This document shows, piece by piece, positions 849 to 13,012 of a DNA stretch of 42,961 nucleotides (position 1 is its first letter; every line of letters starts with the position of its first letter). The stretch is from a virus. Its lineage: Duplodnaviria > Heunggongvirae > Uroviricota > Caudoviricetes. Under the pieces are notes generated by a model, which worked only from the letters and a program-made list of their open reading frames with translations, did no database searches and had not been told where the DNA came from. Where the stretch lies: IMG/VR virus record IMGVR_UViG_2531839476_000018. One strand, given 5' to 3'. Both the position numbers and the translations under genes were made by a program.

Positions 849-1405
849 TTATATAACCCTAGCTGGAAACCTCTTATACAAAGTCGATTCGCCAACATCA
901 TAGATGATCGCCACCTTCTGGCGAGGAATTCCTGCTGCAATTAATCGTCCGGCCTGTGTGCCCATTGTTCTGGTGTAAGTTTGGGACGACGTCCACCAAT
1001 TCGTCCCTGTACGCGAGCAGCTTCCAGTCCAGCTTTTGTTCGTTCAACAATCAGTTCTCGTTCCATTTCAGCCAGGGCACCCATCACATGAAAGAAAAAG
1101 CGCCCCATTGGGGTACTGGTATCAATTGAATCCGTCAGACTACGAAAGTTGATGCCTCGTTCGCGCAACTCCTCCACCAGCACGACAAGATGCCGCATAC
1201 TGCGCCCCAGTCGGTCAAGTTTCCAGACCACCAGCGTATCACCTGCCGATAATGTCCCGAGCAGTTTTTTCAGTCCCGGCCTTTCGGACTTTGTACCGCT
1301 TATCTTGTCTTCAAAAATCAGCTCGCATCCTGCACAGTTCAGCGCATTACGTTGTAGATCTGTGTTCTGGTCATTTGTTGACACACGTACATAGCCAATA
1401 AGCAT
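849..1405 (-). pseudogene. pin: Serine DNA invertase (Hin/Gin/Pin/Cin family), apparently frameshifted between the catalytic domain and the C-terminal HTH domain
   Basis: N-terminus MLIGYVRVSTNDQNTDLQ...VVWKLDRLGRS is the hallmark resolvase/invertase catalytic domain with a GGAG ribosome-binding site 8 nt upstream of ATG 1405. The ORF stops at 941 (…RPKLTPEQWAHRPDD*), while the HTH (QAGRLIAAGIPRQKVAIIYDVGESTLYKRFPARVI*) is encoded in another frame, 849-955. The frames are consistent with 2 extra bases in a CACA repeat near 956-959. Confidence 0.8.
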
Positions 1406-1459
1406 GGTAGATCTCCCTGACAAAAGCAGGAATGATGCCATTTGCTCGTTATTTCTGCA

Positions 1460-1867: not shown

Positions 1868-2311
1868 ATGAATAAAGTTAAAAGTGTTTACAGCCCGTCC
1901 GAAAATGCAATCTACAACGCAGCGCTATATGAAAGTTATATCAAGGAGGGGACATGGCCGCAGGATGGTATTGAAATCAGCGATGAGGATGCTGTCAGAT
2001 TTAATGGGGGAAATAAGCCAACAGGAAAAATGCTGGGAATGGTTTCAGGGGCCCTTGCATGGGTTGATGAGCCGCCGCTTTCACCAGAACAGAAAATATC
2101 AGATGCAGAAAACATGAAAGCCACATTTCGTGCAAAAGCTGACAGTGAAATATCCTGGCGTCAGGATGCTGTTGATGCTGATATCGCAACTGATGAAGAA
2201 ACTTCAACTCTCACCGAATGGAAGAAATACCGTGTGCTGCTGATGCGTGTTGATACGTCAACAGCACCCGATATTGAATGGCCTACGCCTCCGGCAGTTC
2301 AGGCCAGATGA
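1868..2311 (+). CDS. Tail-fibre assembly protein (alternative copy, for the silent fibre variant)
   Basis: 147 aa ending ...DIEWPTPPAVQAR, the typical Tfa C-terminal motif; immediately follows the alternative fibre exon. Confidence 0.7.
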   Translation: MNKVKSVYSPSENAIYNAALYESYIKEGTWPQDGIEISDEDAVRFNGGNKPTGKMLGMVSGALAWVDEPPLSPEQKISDAENMKATFRAKADSEISWRQDAVDADIATDEETSTLTEWKKYRVLLMRVDTSTAPDIEWPTPPAVQAR

Positions 2312-2876
2312 CATCCGGCGCGGTGCTGGTATCTGTTGCCGTCACCGCGTCAATGTAATCCAGCACGGCGTTAAGTCGGGTTGTTTCTGCCTGAGTCAGT
2401 TTCCGTCCGGTCTGTAATTTCAGCTGAATCAGACTGATGGAAGCCATTGCAGCATCAATCAGTGACTGGCGCTGTGCTTCTGCCGCTTCTACTGCGGCGC
2501 TATGCTGTGCCTCGGTATCCGTCACCCATTTCTCACCATCCCATTTATCGTATGGCGTTAACGGTGAAAGCGTGACATAACCGTCTTTGATGGCACCGAT
2601 ATAATCCACTGTAACAGCTGCGCCATTTTCAGTTGAGTAAACGGTCTCATTGCGATGGTCTTCTTCATGGCTCCATCCCTTACCCGTAAATACTGCCACT
2701 TTTCCCGGAATGTTTTCGCCCGGGTCAATACCAGTGGAACAGGCGGGTATACTTACGCCAGTATTAATATATTCATCAGACCAGCCGGTATATTCATACG
2801 TTACTGCATTATAATAAAAACAACGCATATCGCCCGGCACTGTAGCCAGCCCATTTTCATCAAAAACAGGTTTCAT
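2283..2876 (-). CDS. Tail-fibre assembly protein (expressed orientation)
   Basis: 197 aa ending ...TSTAPDVIWPELPEA; directly downstream of the fibre gene; 3' end convergent with and overlapping the alternative tfa. Confidence 0.75.
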   Translation of the reverse strand: MKPVFDENGLATVPGDMRCFYYNAVTYEYTGWSDEYINTGVSIPACSTGIDPGENIPGKVAVFTGKGWSHEEDHRNETVYSTENGAAVTVDYIGAIKDGYVTLSPLTPYDKWDGEKWVTDTEAQHSAAVEAAEAQRQSLIDAAMASISLIQLKLQTGRKLTQAETTRLNAVLDYIDAVTATDTSTAPDVIWPELPEA

Positions 2877-5620: not shown

Positions 5621-5973
5621 TACGCCTCCGATGTAACAGTCGTTATTCCATAGAGAGTGTCGATTTCAGCGGAAAACATGACACGTCGGGTCGTGGTATC
5701 CACCGTCGTATTGAAAGAGAGGATTGATTTAACGCCCTGCGTTTCCAGAATGCGCTTACGGATCGCCAGGTTGTAGGTTTCCGGCTTCTGCTTACCGAGT
5801 ACGGACTGGATCCACGGAGTCCCCTCGGTGGTGTCGAGAAACCATTGCCCATACCACAATTCGAATCGAGTTTTTACCGCCTGCGCCACGGCCTCCGGTG
5901 AGTTAATCAGCCAAGTGTCATCACCGCTGCCAAAGGTGTAATCGCCATCGGCGTCTTCACGTCTGTATCGCAT
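5620..5973 (-). CDS. Baseplate wedge protein (gpW / gp25-like)
   Basis: 117 aa, between the spike and J genes, start overlapping the upstream stop. Confidence 0.55.
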   Translation of the reverse strand: MRYRREDADGDYTFGSGDDTWLINSPEAVAQAVKTRFELWYGQWFLDTTEGTPWIQSVLGKQKPETYNLAIRKRILETQGVKSILSFNTTVDTTTRRVMFSAEIDTLYGITTVTSEA

Positions 5974-6725
5974 CAGTTTACTCCGTCGGTATTGCTTCCA
6001 CCGCGCTGAACACCACCATGAGTGTGCGTATCATCGATTGGCTTGCCGTTAGCCTTCACGCTACCCAAAAACTCAACAGCACCAGTGATTTTTGAAGCCA
6101 CACCAGAAACAACAGACCCCACCATGCCTCCCATCCAGGTTAACAGGCCATGAATGGTTACTTTCTCAGAAAAATCAGCCAGAGGGGCAACCACATCAAG
6201 GCCCCCCGGAGCGACAATTTTAATTTTCCTGGTATCAGGATTAAGCTCAAAATAGGTGCTGCCGTCATCACTACGCAACTGTGTGGCACTGGTATTAATA
6301 CCGCTAATCTTCCTTGCCTGCGACTGGGGACCGACAATACAAAACGCATCCGATAAATCATGCATTCTGTCATCGACCGGCTCCTGTATCCCGCCACTCT
6401 GCCACCAGAAATCAATACAACGATCGGCAAAAATCACCAAACATTCATCACCGGCTTTAACTGGAAACGTTAGCGTACAGCCTCCGCCACGCGGGAATAC
6501 CACTGGCACATCCACCAGCAATGGGTAATTTTTGGTAATGCGGTTGCCGTCGTTATCAATTTCAACGTAACGGATAGCAGGCTGTACAACCGCCGTCACC
6601 GCATCAGGAGCGAATGACTGAACAATGCCAGGCAAGGCGACACGGATCTGGTTCTTTGTTGTTTCCCGTTCAGATTTAAATGTTTCGGCAAGGTCGCCGC
6701 TGCGGGTCTGGTCAGATACTGCCAT
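5973..6725 (-). CDS. Baseplate spike / assembly protein V-like
   Basis: 250 aa with an OB-fold-like N-terminus and a glycine-rich C-terminal tip (HTHGGVQRGGSNTDG); GGAG ribosome-binding site. Confidence 0.6.
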   Translation of the reverse strand: MAVSDQTRSGDLAETFKSERETTKNQIRVALPGIVQSFAPDAVTAVVQPAIRYVEIDNDGNRITKNYPLLVDVPVVFPRGGGCTLTFPVKAGDECLVIFADRCIDFWWQSGGIQEPVDDRMHDLSDAFCIVGPQSQARKISGINTSATQLRSDDGSTYFELNPDTRKIKIVAPGGLDVVAPLADFSEKVTIHGLLTWMGGMVGSVVSGVASKITGAVEFLGSVKANGKPIDDTHTHGGVQRGGSNTDGVN

Positions 6726-6740: not shown

Positions 6741-6770
6741 AAGCAAAAAACCCGCCAAGTGGCGGGTTTG
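6741..6770 (-). terminator. Intrinsic terminator downstream of the 6790-7949 cassette (could also act on the plus strand)
   Basis: Stem cccgcc / ggcggg (6751-6766, loop aagt); on the minus strand it is followed by UUUUUUGCUUU. Confidence 0.65.
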
Positions 6771-6789
6771 AATTTTGAGAAATTTCAGC

Positions 6790-7218
6790 TTATGCAGTTA
6801 ACGAGTCATCACCAATCTTCAGTAATTGATTAACGATTGCATCGACCTCTTCCGCATCCAGAATTACACTTCTCGCGGTAATCCGGTTGATTTTCCGCTC
6901 AAGCTTGTAATCAGAATTAACACGTTGGGCATGCGTCATTTTCAGTTTAACGCCGATTTTCTTTACTGCGTTAACATCAACATCGTTAAGTGCAGCTGCC
7001 TCACCACTACAAAAGGCCGTATAGACTCGCATGTGAACTCCACCTTTTAGTTTTTCACCATCTTGTGTAGCGGTCGGTACCAGATTGTTGGTGATCCGTA
7101 AGGCGGAATGGTACATACCATAGTATGCTCGGCTAATAGCATTTCTCGTCCACATCTCACCGTTTAGAGCCAGGGAATGCTTAGCCAATTCAAGAAAACA
7201 GGTATGCTCAACCGACAT
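6790..7218 (-). CDS. Hypothetical protein, candidate HEPN-like domain (cargo gene B)
   Basis: 142 aa; contains R-x6-H (RAYYGMYH) after an N-terminal helix, compatible with the HEPN Rx4-6H signature; start overlaps the stop of the upstream gene (TAATG). Confidence 0.4.
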   Translation of the reverse strand: MSVEHTCFLELAKHSLALNGEMWTRNAISRAYYGMYHSALRITNNLVPTATQDGEKLKGGVHMRVYTAFCSGEAAALNDVDVNAVKKIGVKLKMTHAQRVNSDYKLERKINRITARSVILDAEEVDAIVNQLLKIGDDSLTA

Positions 7219-7949
7219 TAGAGTTCCCCGGCTTCAAAGCATCCGACGCATTCTGAATCCGCAAGCCCCGCAATAATAATCTCATCAGCCAAGGCATTAT
7301 TCATCTGCGAAAGAAGCACTGGATCGTCTGTTTTGACTTCAACGAACAGCGTATCAAGTTCTGACATTACATAAAAAGCATGAGCGCCAGCAAGACGAGC
7401 GCGGTACTTTTCTGCAACGTTCATCATGAGCCGCCCAATAGTTTTTAGCTCCTGAGCATGATCTTTTTGGGTATGCAGATAATTGAGCGTGTCATACCAT
7501 TTGCCCATATCTTCAGGGCGCGGCACTTCCATTGCAGTTAGCATCGGCATCACCTTTTCAAGCAAATCGATATCAACCCAGTATGCAGAAATTGTAGCAA
7601 CCTCAGCCAATATCGTTGGATTAAGTGAATCAGATGCTTTCTGAATCATCACATACTGGCGAGCATGCAAACCTAAGTTACGCAGCGCAATCGTATAGTT
7701 ACAAAAAGAAACTGGATCGTTAGGCGCTATTCTCAACCCCCGCTCACAGAGTGAACATCCTTCATCTATTTCACCAAGAACAAGCTTAGCTAAGCCTTCA
7801 ATTGATAGCCCCTGATAACGTTCAGGTAGTTTCTTCGCTTCACGAATGATTCGATGGATTTCAAACTCACTCAGAAGGTTTTCACCCTTAGTTAATGAAG
7901 GAGTCAGAAGATCTAACAGTTCTCCTGATTTTGGCTGCGCTAAGCTCAT
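7218..7949 (-). CDS. Hypothetical protein (cargo gene A), translationally coupled to gene B
   Basis: 243-aa alpha-helical ORF; weak GLS-x11-EIDE motif near the N-terminus could be a degenerate nucleotidyltransferase signature (speculative). Confidence 0.35.
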   Translation of the reverse strand: MSLAQPKSGELLDLLTPSLTKGENLLSEFEIHRIIREAKKLPERYQGLSIEGLAKLVLGEIDEGCSLCERGLRIAPNDPVSFCNYTIALRNLGLHARQYVMIQKASDSLNPTILAEVATISAYWVDIDLLEKVMPMLTAMEVPRPEDMGKWYDTLNYLHTQKDHAQELKTIGRLMMNVAEKYRARLAGAHAFYVMSELDTLFVEVKTDDPVLLSQMNNALADEIIIAGLADSECVGCFEAGEL

Positions 7950-8035
7950 GTTTTAGTTATTCCTGGCTTTAATGAAGTAGCATATCGATGGCAATCCACC
8001 ATCAAAAAGTCAGTGCAGTGTAATCGCTCGTCTCA

Positions 8036-8073
8036 AAAAACAACAGTTTTTAGAGCACATTTTGTTGTTTTTC
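8036..8073 (-). terminator. Weak AU-rich hairpin, possible terminator after the lipoprotein gene
   Basis: acaaca / tgttgt stem with a 15-nt loop followed by a T-run on the minus strand; lies in the 150-bp gap upstream of the cassette. Confidence 0.3.
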
Positions 8074-8098
8074 AGGCGTTACGAATTTCAGGTTACCT

Positions 8099-8440
8099 TC
8101 ACCCAGCCACTTTTTTACAAGGGAAAGATCCGATGATTTTCGGCGCATCCATGCTGTTCTGCAGAAGCTGGACATTCAGGAATCGCGTTTCGGTACCAGG
8201 GCGACGAATGTATTCAAAGCCGTAGTTGTTACCGTCTTTGGCAGGCATAAGCCCCATGTCTACTTTCAAACCATTGGTACCCAGTTCGGTGATTTTTTGA
8301 GAGGTAACTCTTTCACCGTTGATAGTCGATAACTCGCCCTGGTTTGCAACCATAGTGTAGCCACCGCATTTAACCGTGAAGCCATCCGCCCACGCGCTGC
8401 ACGCAGAAAAGACAGCTAACAGAAAAATAATACCCCTCAT
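8099..8440 (-). CDS. Small secreted protein or lipoprotein (cargo in the tail operon)
   Basis: 113 aa with an N-terminal signal peptide MRGIIFLLAVFSACSAWA and a lipobox-like FSAC; no virion-protein features. Confidence 0.55.
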   Translation of the reverse strand: MRGIIFLLAVFSACSAWADGFTVKCGGYTMVANQGELSTINGERVTSQKITELGTNGLKVDMGLMPAKDGNNYGFEYIRRPGTETRFLNVQLLQNSMDAPKIIGSFPCKKVAG

Positions 8441-8443
8441 TGC

Positions 8444-9505
8444 TCATCCCCTTTGCAAAGCCGATCGCGTATACAGATCCGCCGCGCCACGCGCTTCGCA
8501 CATCATATCCATGTACCACGCCTGGCCCCTTGTGTCGCCAGTGTACATAATCCCGCGCACAATATAAACGCCATCCGTTGCGATGCTGGCAGGCTGCGAT
8601 GTGGTGCCGCTTAGCGTGATATTTCCATCCGTGTTCTGGTCGGTGATCTGACCACCAGCCATCGCAATATCGTTGTTCGACAAGGCGGTACGATACACGG
8701 AAGCCTGATCCAGCTGAATAAGTCCGTTAACCCGGATGTTCGGATTAATAAGCGCGCGGACGTTTACGCCGTTACCGATAGTCTGCTGCGGCATGCCAAT
8801 AAGCCCGGTAGCGCTGTTGAGCACAATCGCTTCATGAACATATTCGTTATTCGCCACCATCTGGCGCTGACCGTCCACGAATTGCCATGTTGTGCCACAT
8901 TGCCCGGCTACGTTATCCATTAGATGCCGCGTCATGCCAAAGAGTACCCGCCCCCGGGGGAATACAGTAGCAGGCATTTCAGGCGTCAGGCCTTCGGTCG
9001 CGCCTTTGGCTTCGAAGTCTTTCATCAGCGCACGGTTTACATCAGCGACCGTGTAACCGGCAGCCAGCGTCTGTGAGGTTATACTGGTGGCAAAAGCCAG
9101 ATCAGTATCTGCTGCCTGAATCAGGACGTAGGAATCAACCGGACTGTCTTTTCCTGTGACCGAGTAGCGAATTTCACCGCTGAAAATCAGTCCGTAGTTG
9201 CGGCCATCACTCTGACCCACGTCCGCCGCGTCAACTTCCCGCACGGTCCCGACGTCGCTTGCCGACACCTCCGGCGCGATACCGTCGTAACCGGCAATCA
9301 GACGCACTTTCGAAAACTCCTGCCCGGTGATTCGGTTCACAGTATCTGCCGAGAGGTTATAAATTTTGATAGTCCCTACCCGGGACGCGCTGCTGATGTT
9401 GAACCAGTCGATCGTAAAGGTGACTTTAAAATCACTTAGCTCAATTCCCTGACCGTTCCCGTCCACAAGCTGCAGCTCGAAATGTCTCATCCAGTTCTGT
9501 GACAT
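8444..9505 (-). CDS. Baseplate hub / late control D-like tail protein
   Basis: 353 aa, positioned between the tape-measure-proximal genes and the spike gene; family call by position and sequence character. Confidence 0.5.
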   Translation of the reverse strand: MSQNWMRHFELQLVDGNGQGIELSDFKVTFTIDWFNISSASRVGTIKIYNLSADTVNRITGQEFSKVRLIAGYDGIAPEVSASDVGTVREVDAADVGQSDGRNYGLIFSGEIRYSVTGKDSPVDSYVLIQAADTDLAFATSITSQTLAAGYTVADVNRALMKDFEAKGATEGLTPEMPATVFPRGRVLFGMTRHLMDNVAGQCGTTWQFVDGQRQMVANNEYVHEAIVLNSATGLIGMPQQTIGNGVNVRALINPNIRVNGLIQLDQASVYRTALSNNDIAMAGGQITDQNTDGNITLSGTTSQPASIATDGVYIVRGIMYTGDTRGQAWYMDMMCEARGAADLYTRSALQRG

Positions 9506-9507
9506 GC

Positions 9508-9810
9508 TTACTCCGTTGATACCAGTAAATGGCTGCGACCGCCCAGGTCAGTTTTTGTGGGGTAATCCTGTGTGTTGTCATCACAGACCACCACCAGCTT
9601 AAAACCAAGCCCCATACAGGCGTACTGCGCCAGCAGGTCAGCACCAGTGACGAGAGGAATACCGGAGATTACCGGCTCCCCTCTGTCGTTCTGCAGGTCC
9701 ATAATCCAGTACAGATCGCGCCATATGATGCTAATCCGCCAGGTGACACCACCCAGGACGATGCTGAACTGCTGGTTGTCCGCTGTCAGCGGAATTTCCT
9801 GAATTGTCAT
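9508..9810 (-). CDS. Tail protein (small, baseplate-associated)
   Basis: 100-aa ORF tightly packed in the tail operon. Confidence 0.4.
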   Translation of the reverse strand: MTIQEIPLTADNQQFSIVLGGVTWRISIIWRDLYWIMDLQNDRGEPVISGIPLVTGADLLAQYACMGLGFKLVVVCDDNTQDYPTKTDLGGRSHLLVSTE

Positions 9811-10397
9811 TAGCCGCCCCCCAGTAATGACGCCACGTTACCCGTGATGCTTTTCAGCAGTGAAGTATCTGGAGGTTTTGTGGTTTTGTTGCCGCTGTTC
9901 TGTACCGCCGACGTGCTGGCCCCTTCCTTCATGTTGGTTTTATCCGCGACGGTAATCTGCTGTGTCCGGGAGATAATGACCTCCCTCAGGGTGAGGACGG
10001 CGGACAGGACGTTTTCGGTTGTCTTGTCCGTCGTCACTTCCAGCGCCCGGATCAACATGTTGCTGTACAGCCGTTTACCGGTTACCACATCGAAGGGGAT
10101 ACGGCTTTCCTGCAGATCCAGTAGCTCCTGATACGTCTGCTGAGGACTCAGGCCGAGCAGGCTGGTAGCCGTCAGGTTACTGGCAAAATCCAGCAATGCG
10201 CCGCCACCGGCGAAACCAACCTCCATCACCACTTCTGACGGTTTTTTATAGGCATGATCAGCGACAGCGGCCCCGACCTCTACCGGATGCTCTGTTATTT
10301 CAAGCATATCTGTATGCTTCTCTGAAATAACAACACTGGGAACAATCATTCCTATTTTTCTGCTCTGCTGATGAAAAAGTGTAGAGAGAATATCCAC
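9810..10397 (-). CDS. Tail protein (tape-measure-distal baseplate assembly protein)
   Basis: 195-aa ORF whose start overlaps the tape-measure stop. Confidence 0.4.
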   Translation of the reverse strand: MDILSTLFHQQSRKIGMIVPSVVISEKHTDMLEITEHPVEVGAAVADHAYKKPSEVVMEVGFAGGGALLDFASNLTATSLLGLSPQQTYQELLDLQESRIPFDVVTGKRLYSNMLIRALEVTTDKTTENVLSAVLTLREVIISRTQQITVADKTNMKEGASTSAVQNSGNKTTKPPDTSLLKSITGNVASLLGGG

Positions 10398-12382
10398 TAA
10401 CCCACCCTCACCTGATTACTTCGCATGACCTGAGCATTTGCAGACTGTTGCCGACGTGCAACCTCATTACCGACAGCGTGCGGATCTCCGCCACCGTAAA
10501 TATGGTAGGTATTTTGCTGGTTAACCTCTGTCACTTTGCCACTAATTCCCGCCACGGCAGCCTTATTAATCAGCTCTCGAGAATAGATATTTCTTCCATT
10601 CTCATGCTGGATAATGCTGCTCATCAATGCTGACATGGTTTGCGGATCGCTCATATTCAGGGCAGCCCGGGGATCCACTCCCAGTCGTTGCGATACAGCC
10701 CTGATATACGCGGTTGTGTTGTTATTATCAGACGCAGGTGCCCAGGTAGAGATAATTTTCTCCACACTGTTTATTCCCCGTCCGGCGTACAGCATTAACT
10801 GACGAGCAAGAGCCCGTAATCCATCAAAAGCGGTTTCAAATCTGGCAAATCGCCCGCCCGGTCGTTCAAGAGAAGCCCCCGCCTGACCAGCAAAATTAAG
10901 GTTTCCCGGATTGTTATTCCGTTCTCCTCGCTTCGTAGCCTGTGCATGTTGTTCCGGCTCAGCACCTGGAATATCTGACTGAATATTTGCGCCTTTTACG
11001 GTATGAGGATTACGACCAAAATCGGTATCAATGCCAAGCCAGCGCAATGAATCTCCAATATTTTGTTTCGTGTAATCCCAGGATGACTTCGCACTGGCAC
11101 CAATATTTTCGCGATCGGAGTACAAATAAGCAGCATAAGCCATCCAGCCTTTTAACCATGGCGGTACCGGCAAACCAGATATTTTCCCGAAAGCCCCCAG
11201 AACCCTGGATACCCAGACACCCGCGATGAATGTACCGAGGATTTCCAGTGCATTTTGCCAGCCGCCAACACCATCTTTTAGTTCCAGAAGGTGATCACGA
11301 AGCCAGGTGATCGCATCCTTCGCTTTATCTATTGCCGGTTGCCATTTTTCCCAGTCGATAAGACTGTTACCGCCTTCTTTCCATGTTTTGTAGTCTTCCC
11401 ACAAGAGACCGAGAGCCACGATCAGACCGGTAATCAGCCCTATAGGTGACATCCAGAAAGTAGAGTTAAGTATCCGCATGGCGACAACCAGACCGCCGAT
11501 AACCTCTATCAGGGTTTTCGTTTCGGCATCCAGTTTCCCCCACCACTCGATGATATCTCCGACACCATCGACTATCCGAAATGCTACCCGCCCGACTATC
11601 TCACCCAGCCAGAGGATCCCCTTTATGACCTTTGTGATGGTGACTTCAATTTTGGGAAAATTTTCAATTATCTTTTTGCGCAGGTTATCAATCTGCCCCG
11701 CCAGTCCGCCCGCAAGATTCGATCCGATTTTGTCCCGCGCCATCCCGGCCATTTCACCGAGCGATTTCAGCGAGGTCATAAACCGGTTTGACGATAAGGC
11801 AGCCTGATCGGCATTAAATCCGATCGCTTTCACCATTTCTGAATACTGAGCGCTGAACTGCCCCACTCCGCGACGCATAGCCATCAGGGTATTTTCGTCA
11901 ATGCCCAGCATCTGCGCATACTGGTTAGCCCGGTAATACGGCATACCGCTGAGCTTCTGGCCTACACCTGTAAAAATAGCGGCCATGTCACGCATGTTGC
12001 CGCTGGCATCACGGGTCTGTACGCCCAGGCGATTCAGGAAGCCTTCCGCCCCGGGATTGTTACGAATAAACCGGGAGAGGCTTTCCAGAGAAGATCGCGC
12101 AGCGTCCACGCTGCCGCCAACCTGCGAAACCGCATAGCCAATAGACTGAATTCCCTGGACTGTCGCGCCGGTGCGCTGTGACGCCCAGTAAAGATTATCC
12201 AGACCGGAGGCGATCTTAGCCGTAAAGGCCACCACGGACAGCGCAGCTCCTTCAACAGCCAGCCCCATTTTGATGACATTTGCAGTTGTACCGGCGAGGA
12301 CAGAACCGAACTTTTTCGCTCCTGCATCATCCACACTGAAGCCAAGCGAGACGAGGAAATCTTTAATAGTTTCAGCGTTCAT
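10397..12382 (-). CDS. Tail tape measure protein
   Basis: Long, Gly/Ala-rich helical ORF of about 660 aa following the chaperone gene. The ATG at 12382 (MNAETIK) with a GGAGAGAGG ribosome-binding site is preferred over the upstream TTG at 12403 used by the ORF track. Confidence 0.8.
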   Translation of the reverse strand: MNAETIKDFLVSLGFSVDDAGAKKFGSVLAGTTANVIKMGLAVEGAALSVVAFTAKIASGLDNLYWASQRTGATVQGIQSIGYAVSQVGGSVDAARSSLESLSRFIRNNPGAEGFLNRLGVQTRDASGNMRDMAAIFTGVGQKLSGMPYYRANQYAQMLGIDENTLMAMRRGVGQFSAQYSEMVKAIGFNADQAALSSNRFMTSLKSLGEMAGMARDKIGSNLAGGLAGQIDNLRKKIIENFPKIEVTITKVIKGILWLGEIVGRVAFRIVDGVGDIIEWWGKLDAETKTLIEVIGGLVVAMRILNSTFWMSPIGLITGLIVALGLLWEDYKTWKEGGNSLIDWEKWQPAIDKAKDAITWLRDHLLELKDGVGGWQNALEILGTFIAGVWVSRVLGAFGKISGLPVPPWLKGWMAYAAYLYSDRENIGASAKSSWDYTKQNIGDSLRWLGIDTDFGRNPHTVKGANIQSDIPGAEPEQHAQATKRGERNNNPGNLNFAGQAGASLERPGGRFARFETAFDGLRALARQLMLYAGRGINSVEKIISTWAPASDNNNTTAYIRAVSQRLGVDPRAALNMSDPQTMSALMSSIIQHENGRNIYSRELINKAAVAGISGKVTEVNQQNTYHIYGGGDPHAVGNEVARRQQSANAQVMRSNQVRVG

Positions 12383-13012
12383 TATCCTCTCTCCATTTCT
12401 CAATGCGCCGCTGGTTATCCGCTTTTACCGCCAGATGGTCATTCAAAAGAGCAATATCGTACAAATCGACAGAGCCATCTTTAAGTGCTGTATAAGGAAT
12501 TAACCCGGCGTCAACCGGATTGAGAAGGTAGGACAGCCCGTCCGGCAGGCTGTTAAACGTCAGCCATGTTGCAGGCTCTGCGTCGTGCTGGTAAGGGGTG
12601 TAGGCAAAAAATTTCCCAGCGAATCGGCGACCACCCGCGCCACCAGCTGCAGCATGACCAGCAAGTCAATATCATCAAACATCAGTTCGCCCTGGGTAAA
12701 TACCGGAACCCATCCGTCCATATGACGCCGCGATACCACCGCAAGACAGGGATGAATAATCGCATCGGTGTCATCTTCGGTCAGGGAAGACAGTTCCTCA
12801 GCGATACGCGGGAGCATGGTTTCAAACACCGGTTTTAACTGCTCGAATTTCACGGTGTCGATTTTGCCATCAGCAGGCAAACGGGAGCGAATGCTCCCGA
12901 AATCTGACATCATTCCTGCCAGCACCGGCAGAAGTTTGCGGGTCACTTTCAGCTGATCAAAAACGCTGAGTTTTGCCGCGCGATATTTCACGCCTTTGAT
13001 TTCGAATTCCAT
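12372..13012 (-). CDS. Tail assembly chaperone: G product 12560-13012; predicted -1 frameshift GT product extending to 12372
   Basis: 150-aa ORF between the tube and tape-measure genes; the heptamer AAATTTT lies 14 codons before the stop, and the -1 frame stays open for 77 codons, ending at a TGA that overlaps the tape-measure start. Confidence 0.6.
12608..12614 (-). promoter_or_regulatory. Candidate -1 programmed ribosomal frameshift slippery heptamer (A AAT TTT)
   Basis: XXXYYYZ heptamer in the zero frame GGA AAT TTT TTG of the chaperone gene. Confidence 0.55.

Follow-up and report, generated by a model that had tools for sequence, protein, structure and literature searches.

A gene behind the baseplate hub gene of temperate myophage tail modules in Enterobacterales encodes a predicted periplasmic beta-barrel protein

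The 113-residue protein encoded at positions 8099–8440 of the 42,961-nucleotide stretch of DNA analysed here (the window), an Escherichia coli prophage, is the product of a real gene that forms a fixture of its tail module: the gene lies directly behind the baseplate hub gene, and mobile cargo starts only after it. Export of the protein is well supported by the features of its sequence and of its family. By analogy with phage proteins of known function, a role in superinfection exclusion at the envelope is plausible.

The open reading frame occupies exactly 8099–8440 on the minus strand, as the first-pass annotation of the window had delimited it, and in a PHROG HMM scan its translation matched phrog_3443 with E=8.4e-48 over residues 2–112 of 113. 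Searches for homologues returned 396 clusters at 90% identity with a single sequence and 705 with a profile, and these clusters together with the PHROG match establish the reading frame as a gene. An identical protein, WP_001214055.1, is recorded at the identical locus under the current PGAP name "STY1065/STY2022 family phage-derived protein"; the protein of the window is a full-length member of this family, from which we saw no difference, and the family is confined to Enterobacterales. Relatives have been labelled 'Secreted protein' or 'Putative exported protein' independently by UniRef and NCBI sources. There were zero matches in Pfam (E<=0.1), NCBIfam release 20 and PADLOC; since NCBIfam release 20 lacks a match, the model behind the PGAP name is probably newer than that release. 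A literature search on STY1065, STY2022, WP_001214055, phrog_3443 and the SEN34 protein returned nothing relevant, and the paper on SEN34 contains no virion proteomics. The family is already catalogued, with no function assigned to it, and it belongs to a familiar kind, that of phage accessory envelope proteins encoded among tail genes.

Two observations concern the annotation and retrieval of homologues. In the GenBank records of SEN34 (L002, NC_028699, 5506–5847; SEN34_20) and Klebsiella phage ST340-VIM1phi10.1 (L004, MK422455, 4989–5330) only the last 77 codons of the gene are annotated, so that the signal peptide was missed; the full reading frames encode 112–113 residues including this peptide, and the annotated starts are wrong. 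Giant proteins of 1,700–5,300 residues (P0124, P0143, P0149, P0159) that appeared as homologues were rejected as spurious, because each repeat contributed about 6 bits and the significance was the sum over 17 copies. Summed in this way, the scores of the repeat proteins against the family profile gave E-values as low as 1e-35, and whole-sequence E-values call for caution when a protein is repetitive.

The 2.9-kb stretch around the gene, from hub to spike, is 100% identical to the chromosome of the O55:H7 strain DEC5E and was matched in 336 of 5,426 complete E. coli genomes (~6%). The features of the locus are as follows.

5973..6725, minus strand: baseplate spike gene with a gpV-like N domain and Apex motif, the downstream boundary of the hub–spike insertion slot
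6748..7949, minus strand: variable two-gene cargo cassette (243 aa + 142 aa, GC3 ~0.40) with a strong intrinsic terminator at 6769–6748
7950..8098, minus strand: AT-rich spacer of 149 nt (GC 0.38) between the gene and the cargo, with a weak A/U-rich hairpin followed by U's
8099..8440, minus strand: coding sequence of the predicted exported protein (WP_001214055.1; phrog_3443), stop codon at 8099–8101
8102..8386, minus strand: predicted mature periplasmic domain, residues 19–113, modelled as a seven-strand all-beta barrel with the invariant Cys25 and Cys108
8387..8440, minus strand: predicted Sec signal peptide, codons 1–18, MRGIIFLLAVFSACSAWA, with the family-conserved AxA (A16, A18) and a predicted SPase I cut before D19
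8441..8452, minus strand: hub junction, with AGGGGA at 8447–8452, the hub stop codon TGA at 8444–8446 and GCA before the ATG
8444..9505, minus strand: baseplate hub gene (353 aa), the constant neighbour upstream
9508–9810, minus strand: Pam3-gp18-like plug
9810–10397, minus strand: Dit-like tube initiator
10397–12403, minus strand: tape measure (668 aa) with a C-terminal NNPGNLNF motif

The gene order continues past the spike with a sheath initiator and baseplate J on the minus strand. A Q-like antiterminator followed by holin, endolysin, Rz and terminase genes lies upstream on the same strand, which places the gene within one long late operon. Its ATG is found 3 nt past the hub stop codon with the Shine–Dalgarno-like AGGGGA 7 nt upstream, a tight spacing typical of translational coupling. 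No sigma-70-like site was found upstream of the gene on the minus strand and no G+C-rich terminator downstream of it, and neither a strong terminator nor a consensus promoter was detected in the spacer at 7950..8098. From the tight hub coupling and the missing promoter we infer late-operon expression rather than the expression in the lysogen that is typical of morons. Elsewhere in the window, a DNA-invertase reading frame (941–1441, minus strand; phrog_125), two small plus-strand reading frames beside it (1432–1863 and 1868–2311) and a tail-fibre-assembly gene (2283–2876, minus strand; phrog_105) suggest that positions 941–2876 form a Gin/Cin-type invertible host-range segment.

The order plug, hub, 113-residue protein gene, variable stretch and spike was found in all 88 phage or viral loci compared, which comprised YP3, SEN34, Mulock, vB_EcoM-683R1, Omnitron and ST340-VIM1phi10.1 among others and 80 IMG/VR contigs of the 518 encoding a relative. 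The variable stretch ranged from ~65 nt with zero cargo (L058 and L077) up to ~1.85 kb. A scan of one-genome-per-species contigs (Pantoea, Photorhabdus, Yersinia, Serratia, Rahnella, Enterobacter and others), run with a narrower alignment, showed the hub upstream in 37 of 42 loci, and the five exceptions lay at contig ends, were 3′ remnants or came from a decayed prophage carrying an inserted integrase. The plug–hub–gene order was kept even at 28% identity, and in the phage and genome loci examined no member of the family was found outside the hub slot save in decayed prophage fragments. When measured by an ATG-only start rule, the distance from the hub stop codon to the first ATG fell between −8 and +7 nt for 70 of the 107 loci and was +35 nt for another 30; the latter probably start at a putative GTG nearer the hub. 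It is this constant adjacency to the hub in the 88 and the 37 loci that makes the gene a fixture of the tail module. Thus, the first-pass annotation had placed the gene correctly between the hub gene and the cargo cassette, but had wrongly called it cargo, as it is fixed, hub-coupled and upstream of the truly variable genes.

The neighbouring cassette at 6748–7949 has a moron-like terminator, low GC content and variable presence, and no promoter was detected for it. Its 243-residue product belongs to phrog_22649 and gave a weak TPR match, and the 142-residue product belongs to phrog_5176 and gave a weak HEPN_IX match (PADLOC, E=0.009). Related cassettes with 30–50% identity fill the same hub–spike slot in other prophages, and elsewhere the slot holds unrelated genes or none; it resembles an exchangeable site for morons or defence genes.

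The ratio dN/dS was ~0.09 for the mature part of the protein (0.03 in its C-terminal third), as against values of 0.09 (hub), 0.11 (plug) and 0.15 (spike). Purifying selection on the gene is as strong as on the hub, which argues that the gene is functional and not a decaying passenger; no diversifying selection or arms-race signature was seen in the dN/dS values. Among the locus pairs with a hub divergence below 6%, the mature protein was more than 20% different in 17% and the spike in 28%, and Dit and plug never were. The zone downstream of the hub thus reads as a mosaic in which old alleles have been swapped, sometimes within the gene (e.g. P0046 and P0005). Protein distances tracked those of the hub most closely (rho 0.86), as adjacency predicts, and the co-variation of allele distances showed no excess coupling to the spike or to the tape-measure C-terminus; this comparison is uninformative on the partner of the protein.

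A Sec signal peptide cut by SPase I has a positively charged n-region, an h-region of 7–15 hydrophobic residues and small residues at −3 and −1. A rule-based check of the sequence found each of these in the protein, with MR as the n-region, the 11-residue hydrophobic core GIIFLLAVFSA and the c-region CSAWA|D, where DG stands right after the predicted cut. A crude signal filter passed 6 of the 172 window reading frames of >=60 aa, and the one under study has the most hydrophobic core; the recognisable gene among the others encodes an Rz-like spanin. We then aligned 68 diverse sequences falling into two clades ~28% identical to each other (alignment A3). Columns 1–18 of this alignment had 40% identity and a mean hydropathy of +2.1, and the mature part 59% and −0.6. 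Across 191 near-full-length members, a hydrophobic 9-mer with a KD value >= 2.0 was present in 181 and a −3/−1 site in 186, so the signal region is conserved as a property and not as a sequence. Its best-conserved positions in A3 are the small residues at −3 and −1 (A16 in 45/68 and A18 in 48/68 sequences); in clade 1, A18 does not vary and A16 hardly does, and homologues usually read SFGATA|G, SFSAAA|S or similar at the cleavage region. The signal peptide that had been proposed for the window's protein is therefore borne out, both in its features and in their conservation. Family conservation and the rules for the two peptidases served to choose between SPase I and SPase II, and on these grounds processing by SPase I to a soluble periplasmic protein is the likelier fate and a fairly probable one.

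A3 has just three invariant columns, two of which hold the mature-part cysteines Cys25 and Cys108. We infer that these residues form a periplasmic disulfide, and such a pair fits an oxidising compartment. AlphaFold on a shallow alignment gave an unusable model (pLDDT 46), and the two-clade alignment, used instead, gave a pLDDT of 85.3 (>90 over most of residues 21–111) and a pTM of 0.71. This model has seven beta-strands arranged as an up-and-down meander barrel. Foldseek searches against PDB and BFVD returned nothing at E<=0.001, only generic small barrels; the nearest neighbours were avidin/streptavidin-like and lipocalin/FABP-like barrels together with two uncharacterised Bacteroides proteins, all at TM ~0.45–0.54. 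A profile search against all PDB sequences gave 0 matches. The predicted fold class would be a small calycin/avidin-like barrel, an assignment that carries no function with it. Neither homology nor structure matching pointed to a function in Pfam, NCBIfam 20, PADLOC, the PDB sequence profile search or Foldseek at E<=0.001.

The exclusive fidelity of the family to one tail module suggests that its function concerns that tail. In our proposal, the protein would be expressed from the late operon together with the tail genes and leave the cytoplasm through Sec. SPase I would most likely cleave it behind AWA, and the ~95 residues left would fold in the periplasm into a beta-barrel locked by a disulfide. 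Its gene would be an accessory gene and not one for a virion component, placed at the hub–spike junction of SEN34/Brunovirus-type temperate myophage tails across Enterobacterales. Within the envelope of a cell that is infected or induced, the protein may hinder tails of its own kind from penetrating the envelope or delivering DNA; its target might be a component of the tail tip reaching into the periplasm (the hub, the spike or the end of the tape measure) or an envelope component on which the tip depends. It would thus be a self-directed exclusion or protection factor, with a logic like that of T4 Spackle and unlike that of the outer-membrane masks Llp and Cor. We hold this reading, envelope-level exclusion of or protection against tails of the same kind by action in the periplasm, as a tentative one that is possible rather than probable. 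Because no consensus promoter was found upstream of the gene, expression in the lysogen, where exclusion would be most useful, is not indicated. The lack of diversifying selection and of any special coupling of alleles to the spike or the tape-measure C-terminus likewise speaks against exclusion.

Spackle (Sp, gp61.3) of T4 is a periplasmic inhibitor of the gp5 tail lysozyme. The likeness is that both are, in the present case by prediction, soluble periplasmic proteins of ~10 kDa with a cleavable signal peptide from contractile-tail phages, and that the present protein, too, could conceptually act on the tail tip in the periplasm. However, Spackle is all-helical whereas the present model is all-beta, the two have no sequence relation, and Spackle is not encoded beside the hub; nor was a lysozyme domain detected in the hub, spike or tape measure of the window's phage. 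A second comparison is with gp15 of HK97, which blocks DNA entry; it is an inner-membrane protein and a classic moron. Like the present gene, gp15 is an accessory gene within the tail operon of a temperate phage and its product is thought to act at the envelope, but the 113-residue protein has a predicted cleavable signal, and no promoter or terminator of its own was detected.

The protein could instead act in the periplasm to help the phage through its own lytic cycle, by affecting lysis timing or envelope integrity, restraining muralytic activity of the virion or the host, or binding envelope debris so as to spare progeny. Hub coupling without an own promoter implies late expression in every lytic cycle, and the strong purifying selection fits such a role as well. 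The same-length tape measures of related modules (yong1, ST340-VIM1phi10.1, L137) are annotated or precomputed as SLT-domain proteins, and the presence of SLT or lysozyme-like domains in the tape measures of relatives speaks for this role; in the window's own 668-aa tape measure, however, no SLT or lysozyme Pfam domain was detected. The format also deserves comparison, since a small disulfide-bonded periplasmic beta-barrel is that of the lysozyme inhibitors MliC/PliC too. Like these and other calycin/avidin-like barrels, the protein would be an extracytoplasmic meander beta-barrel of ~100 residues with a conserved cysteine pair, but there was no match to the MliC family PF09864 (Pfam E<=0.1), and MliC/PliC were outside the 50 best Foldseek PDB matches. 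With a complete cassette of holin, endolysin and Rz found elsewhere in the window, the gene can be explained without a function in lysis, which was disfavoured as a candidate. Relatives lacking the gene are viable. On balance, we find a helper of the lytic cycle doubtful.

A role in lysogenic conversion or host fitness, e.g. as an envelope protein for serum or stress resistance or colonisation like lambda Bor, would suit a predicted exported protein whose gene is restricted to, and common in, temperate phages and prophages of host-associated Enterobacterales, as in the ~6% of complete E. coli genomes given above. Fitness morons usually move between phage types and carry their own signals. By contrast, the present family was never found outside one tail-module slot, its gene has no promoter or terminator of its own, and truly mobile cargo sits in the neighbouring slot. 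The base composition is also that of the phage backbone, as the GC3 value of the gene (0.53) lies among those of the hub (0.61), tape measure (0.51) and spike (0.47), and the cargo genes have 0.39–0.41. With neither own signals nor atypical composition nor variable presence, the gene does not look like a moron, and a host-fitness role appears improbable.

T5 Llp and the Cor proteins of phi80, N15 and HK022 are phage lipoproteins that mask FhuA. The first-pass annotation had likened the protein to these and read FSAC as lipobox-like. The protein would then be lipidated at Cys14, cut by SPase II and, with Ser at +2, sorted to the outer membrane, where it would mask the phage's own receptor. Llp and Cor share with the protein a small size, an export signal at the N-terminus, a place in the envelope (predicted in the present case) and a gene among those of the tail, and self-exclusion is plausible for it. 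The string FSAC is indeed present and matches the permissive PROSITE lipobox pattern, but it fails the strict pattern [LVI][ASTVI][GAS]C and G+LPP because of the Phe at −3, and a lipoprotein signal peptide ending before Cys14 would measure only 13 residues. Among the 191 members, a permissive lipobox-like string was found in 15 and the strict pattern in one. Cys14 itself is restricted to the allele group of >90% identity and a few scattered alleles, and it is missing from most of the family, so that a conserved lipidated cysteine was not found among the 191 members; a few other alleles have better lipoboxes (LMAC, IASC) with Cys at or near the same column. As the AxA motif downstream and the two cysteines of the mature part are conserved and the lipobox cysteine is not, lipidation is, for the family, the less likely of the two fates. 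Lipidation of the window's own allele at FSAC by Lgt and LspA we consider rather unlikely.

A lipid-anchored form does seem to exist within the family. A 292-residue variant with a canonical VLSGC lipobox occupies the same genomic slot directly after the hub gene (L137, 6001–6879; also L138 and L139, all Logan contigs with the same tail module). Its N-terminal domain of ~190 residues had no match in Pfam or PDB, and its C-terminus is formed by the family barrel, which suggests that this barrel is extracytoplasmic whether free or tethered. This variant, and one weak BFVD neighbour of the model that is annotated as a lipoprotein (TM 0.51, E=0.014), would speak for the Llp/Cor-type reading. Against it, neither sequence nor fold relates the protein to Llp or Cor: phrog_3443 was its sole match in the PHROG scan at E<=0.1, with no similarity to the PHROGs annotated as Llp, Cor or superinfection exclusion, and Pfam gave nothing. 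Moreover, the family site is AxA (SPase I) and not a lipobox, the ~95-residue mature barrel is larger, and the gene is linked to the hub and not to the receptor-binding fibre genes. An outer-membrane mask of the Llp/Cor type is accordingly quite improbable, and the label does not fit the protein.

Hub homologues were found in 152 phage records, and comparison of these shows tail modules that lack the gene. The hub is followed directly by the spike in Pam3, the virulent Salmonella phage BP63, Providencia PSTCR3 and Acinetobacter Ab105-1phi. The solved Pam3 baseplate is described as complete with six components, including hub gp19, spike gp20, plug gp18, wedge gp22–23 and fibres gp24, and none is of the kind studied here (PMC9942802). 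In Burkholderia phage Magia an unrelated reverse-strand gene sits at the hub–spike position. Hafnia phage yong1, with a hub 77% identical to that of the window, encodes an unrelated protein without a signal peptide there and retains a 23-codon 3′ remnant of the gene (L089, 4523–4591), its last codons standing beside different cargo. Remnants of this kind, in which only the last 13–36 codons are left next to different cargo, were seen in L089, L130, L132 and L133, and suggest that the exchange of cargo at times involves recombination within the conserved 3′ end of the gene.

The gene is thus neither present in all phages with the module nor represented in the solved baseplate, and its absence from Pam3, BP63, PSTCR3 and Ab105-1phi and its reduction to a remnant in yong1 show that it is dispensable for tail building; as judged from these genomes, it is an Enterobacterales-specific addition at the hub–spike junction. 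The contrast drawn earlier between an exported protein and the structural proteins of the tail is upheld by these solved and sequenced relatives. A role in the baseplate or in tail assembly, with a hydrophobic N-terminus that does not serve as a signal peptide, might be suggested by the location inside the baseplate block and the translational coupling to the hub, but is extremely improbable, given the solved Pam3 baseplate and several sequenced relatives that are complete without the gene, its loss from yong1, and a conserved n/h/c layout, AxA motif and invariant cysteine pair that argue for export.

Returning to exclusion in the periplasm, a wider reading is that the family represents a new class of exclusion factor, a hub-coupled, Sec-exported periplasmic beta-barrel that would neutralise incoming tips of the same module, exist in soluble and lipid-anchored versions, be widespread among the temperate myophages of Enterobacterales and be a functional analogue of Spackle. 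We regard such a new class as somewhat doubtful.

The results correct the boundary of the cargo in these tail modules, as the mobile hotspot begins past the gene and swaps sometimes cut its 3′ end. The family is found in many prophages of Klebsiella, Salmonella, Pantoea, Photorhabdus and Yersinia and is selected as strongly as essential tail proteins. Even if exclusion is not its function, it is a clean orphan, one small gene in one conserved position that is easily tested. If envelope-level exclusion or protection is true, the family would explain part of the resistance of lysogens and infected cells to related phages, would be relevant to phage therapy against Klebsiella and E. coli, and would add a new fold to the few periplasmic anti-phage proteins.
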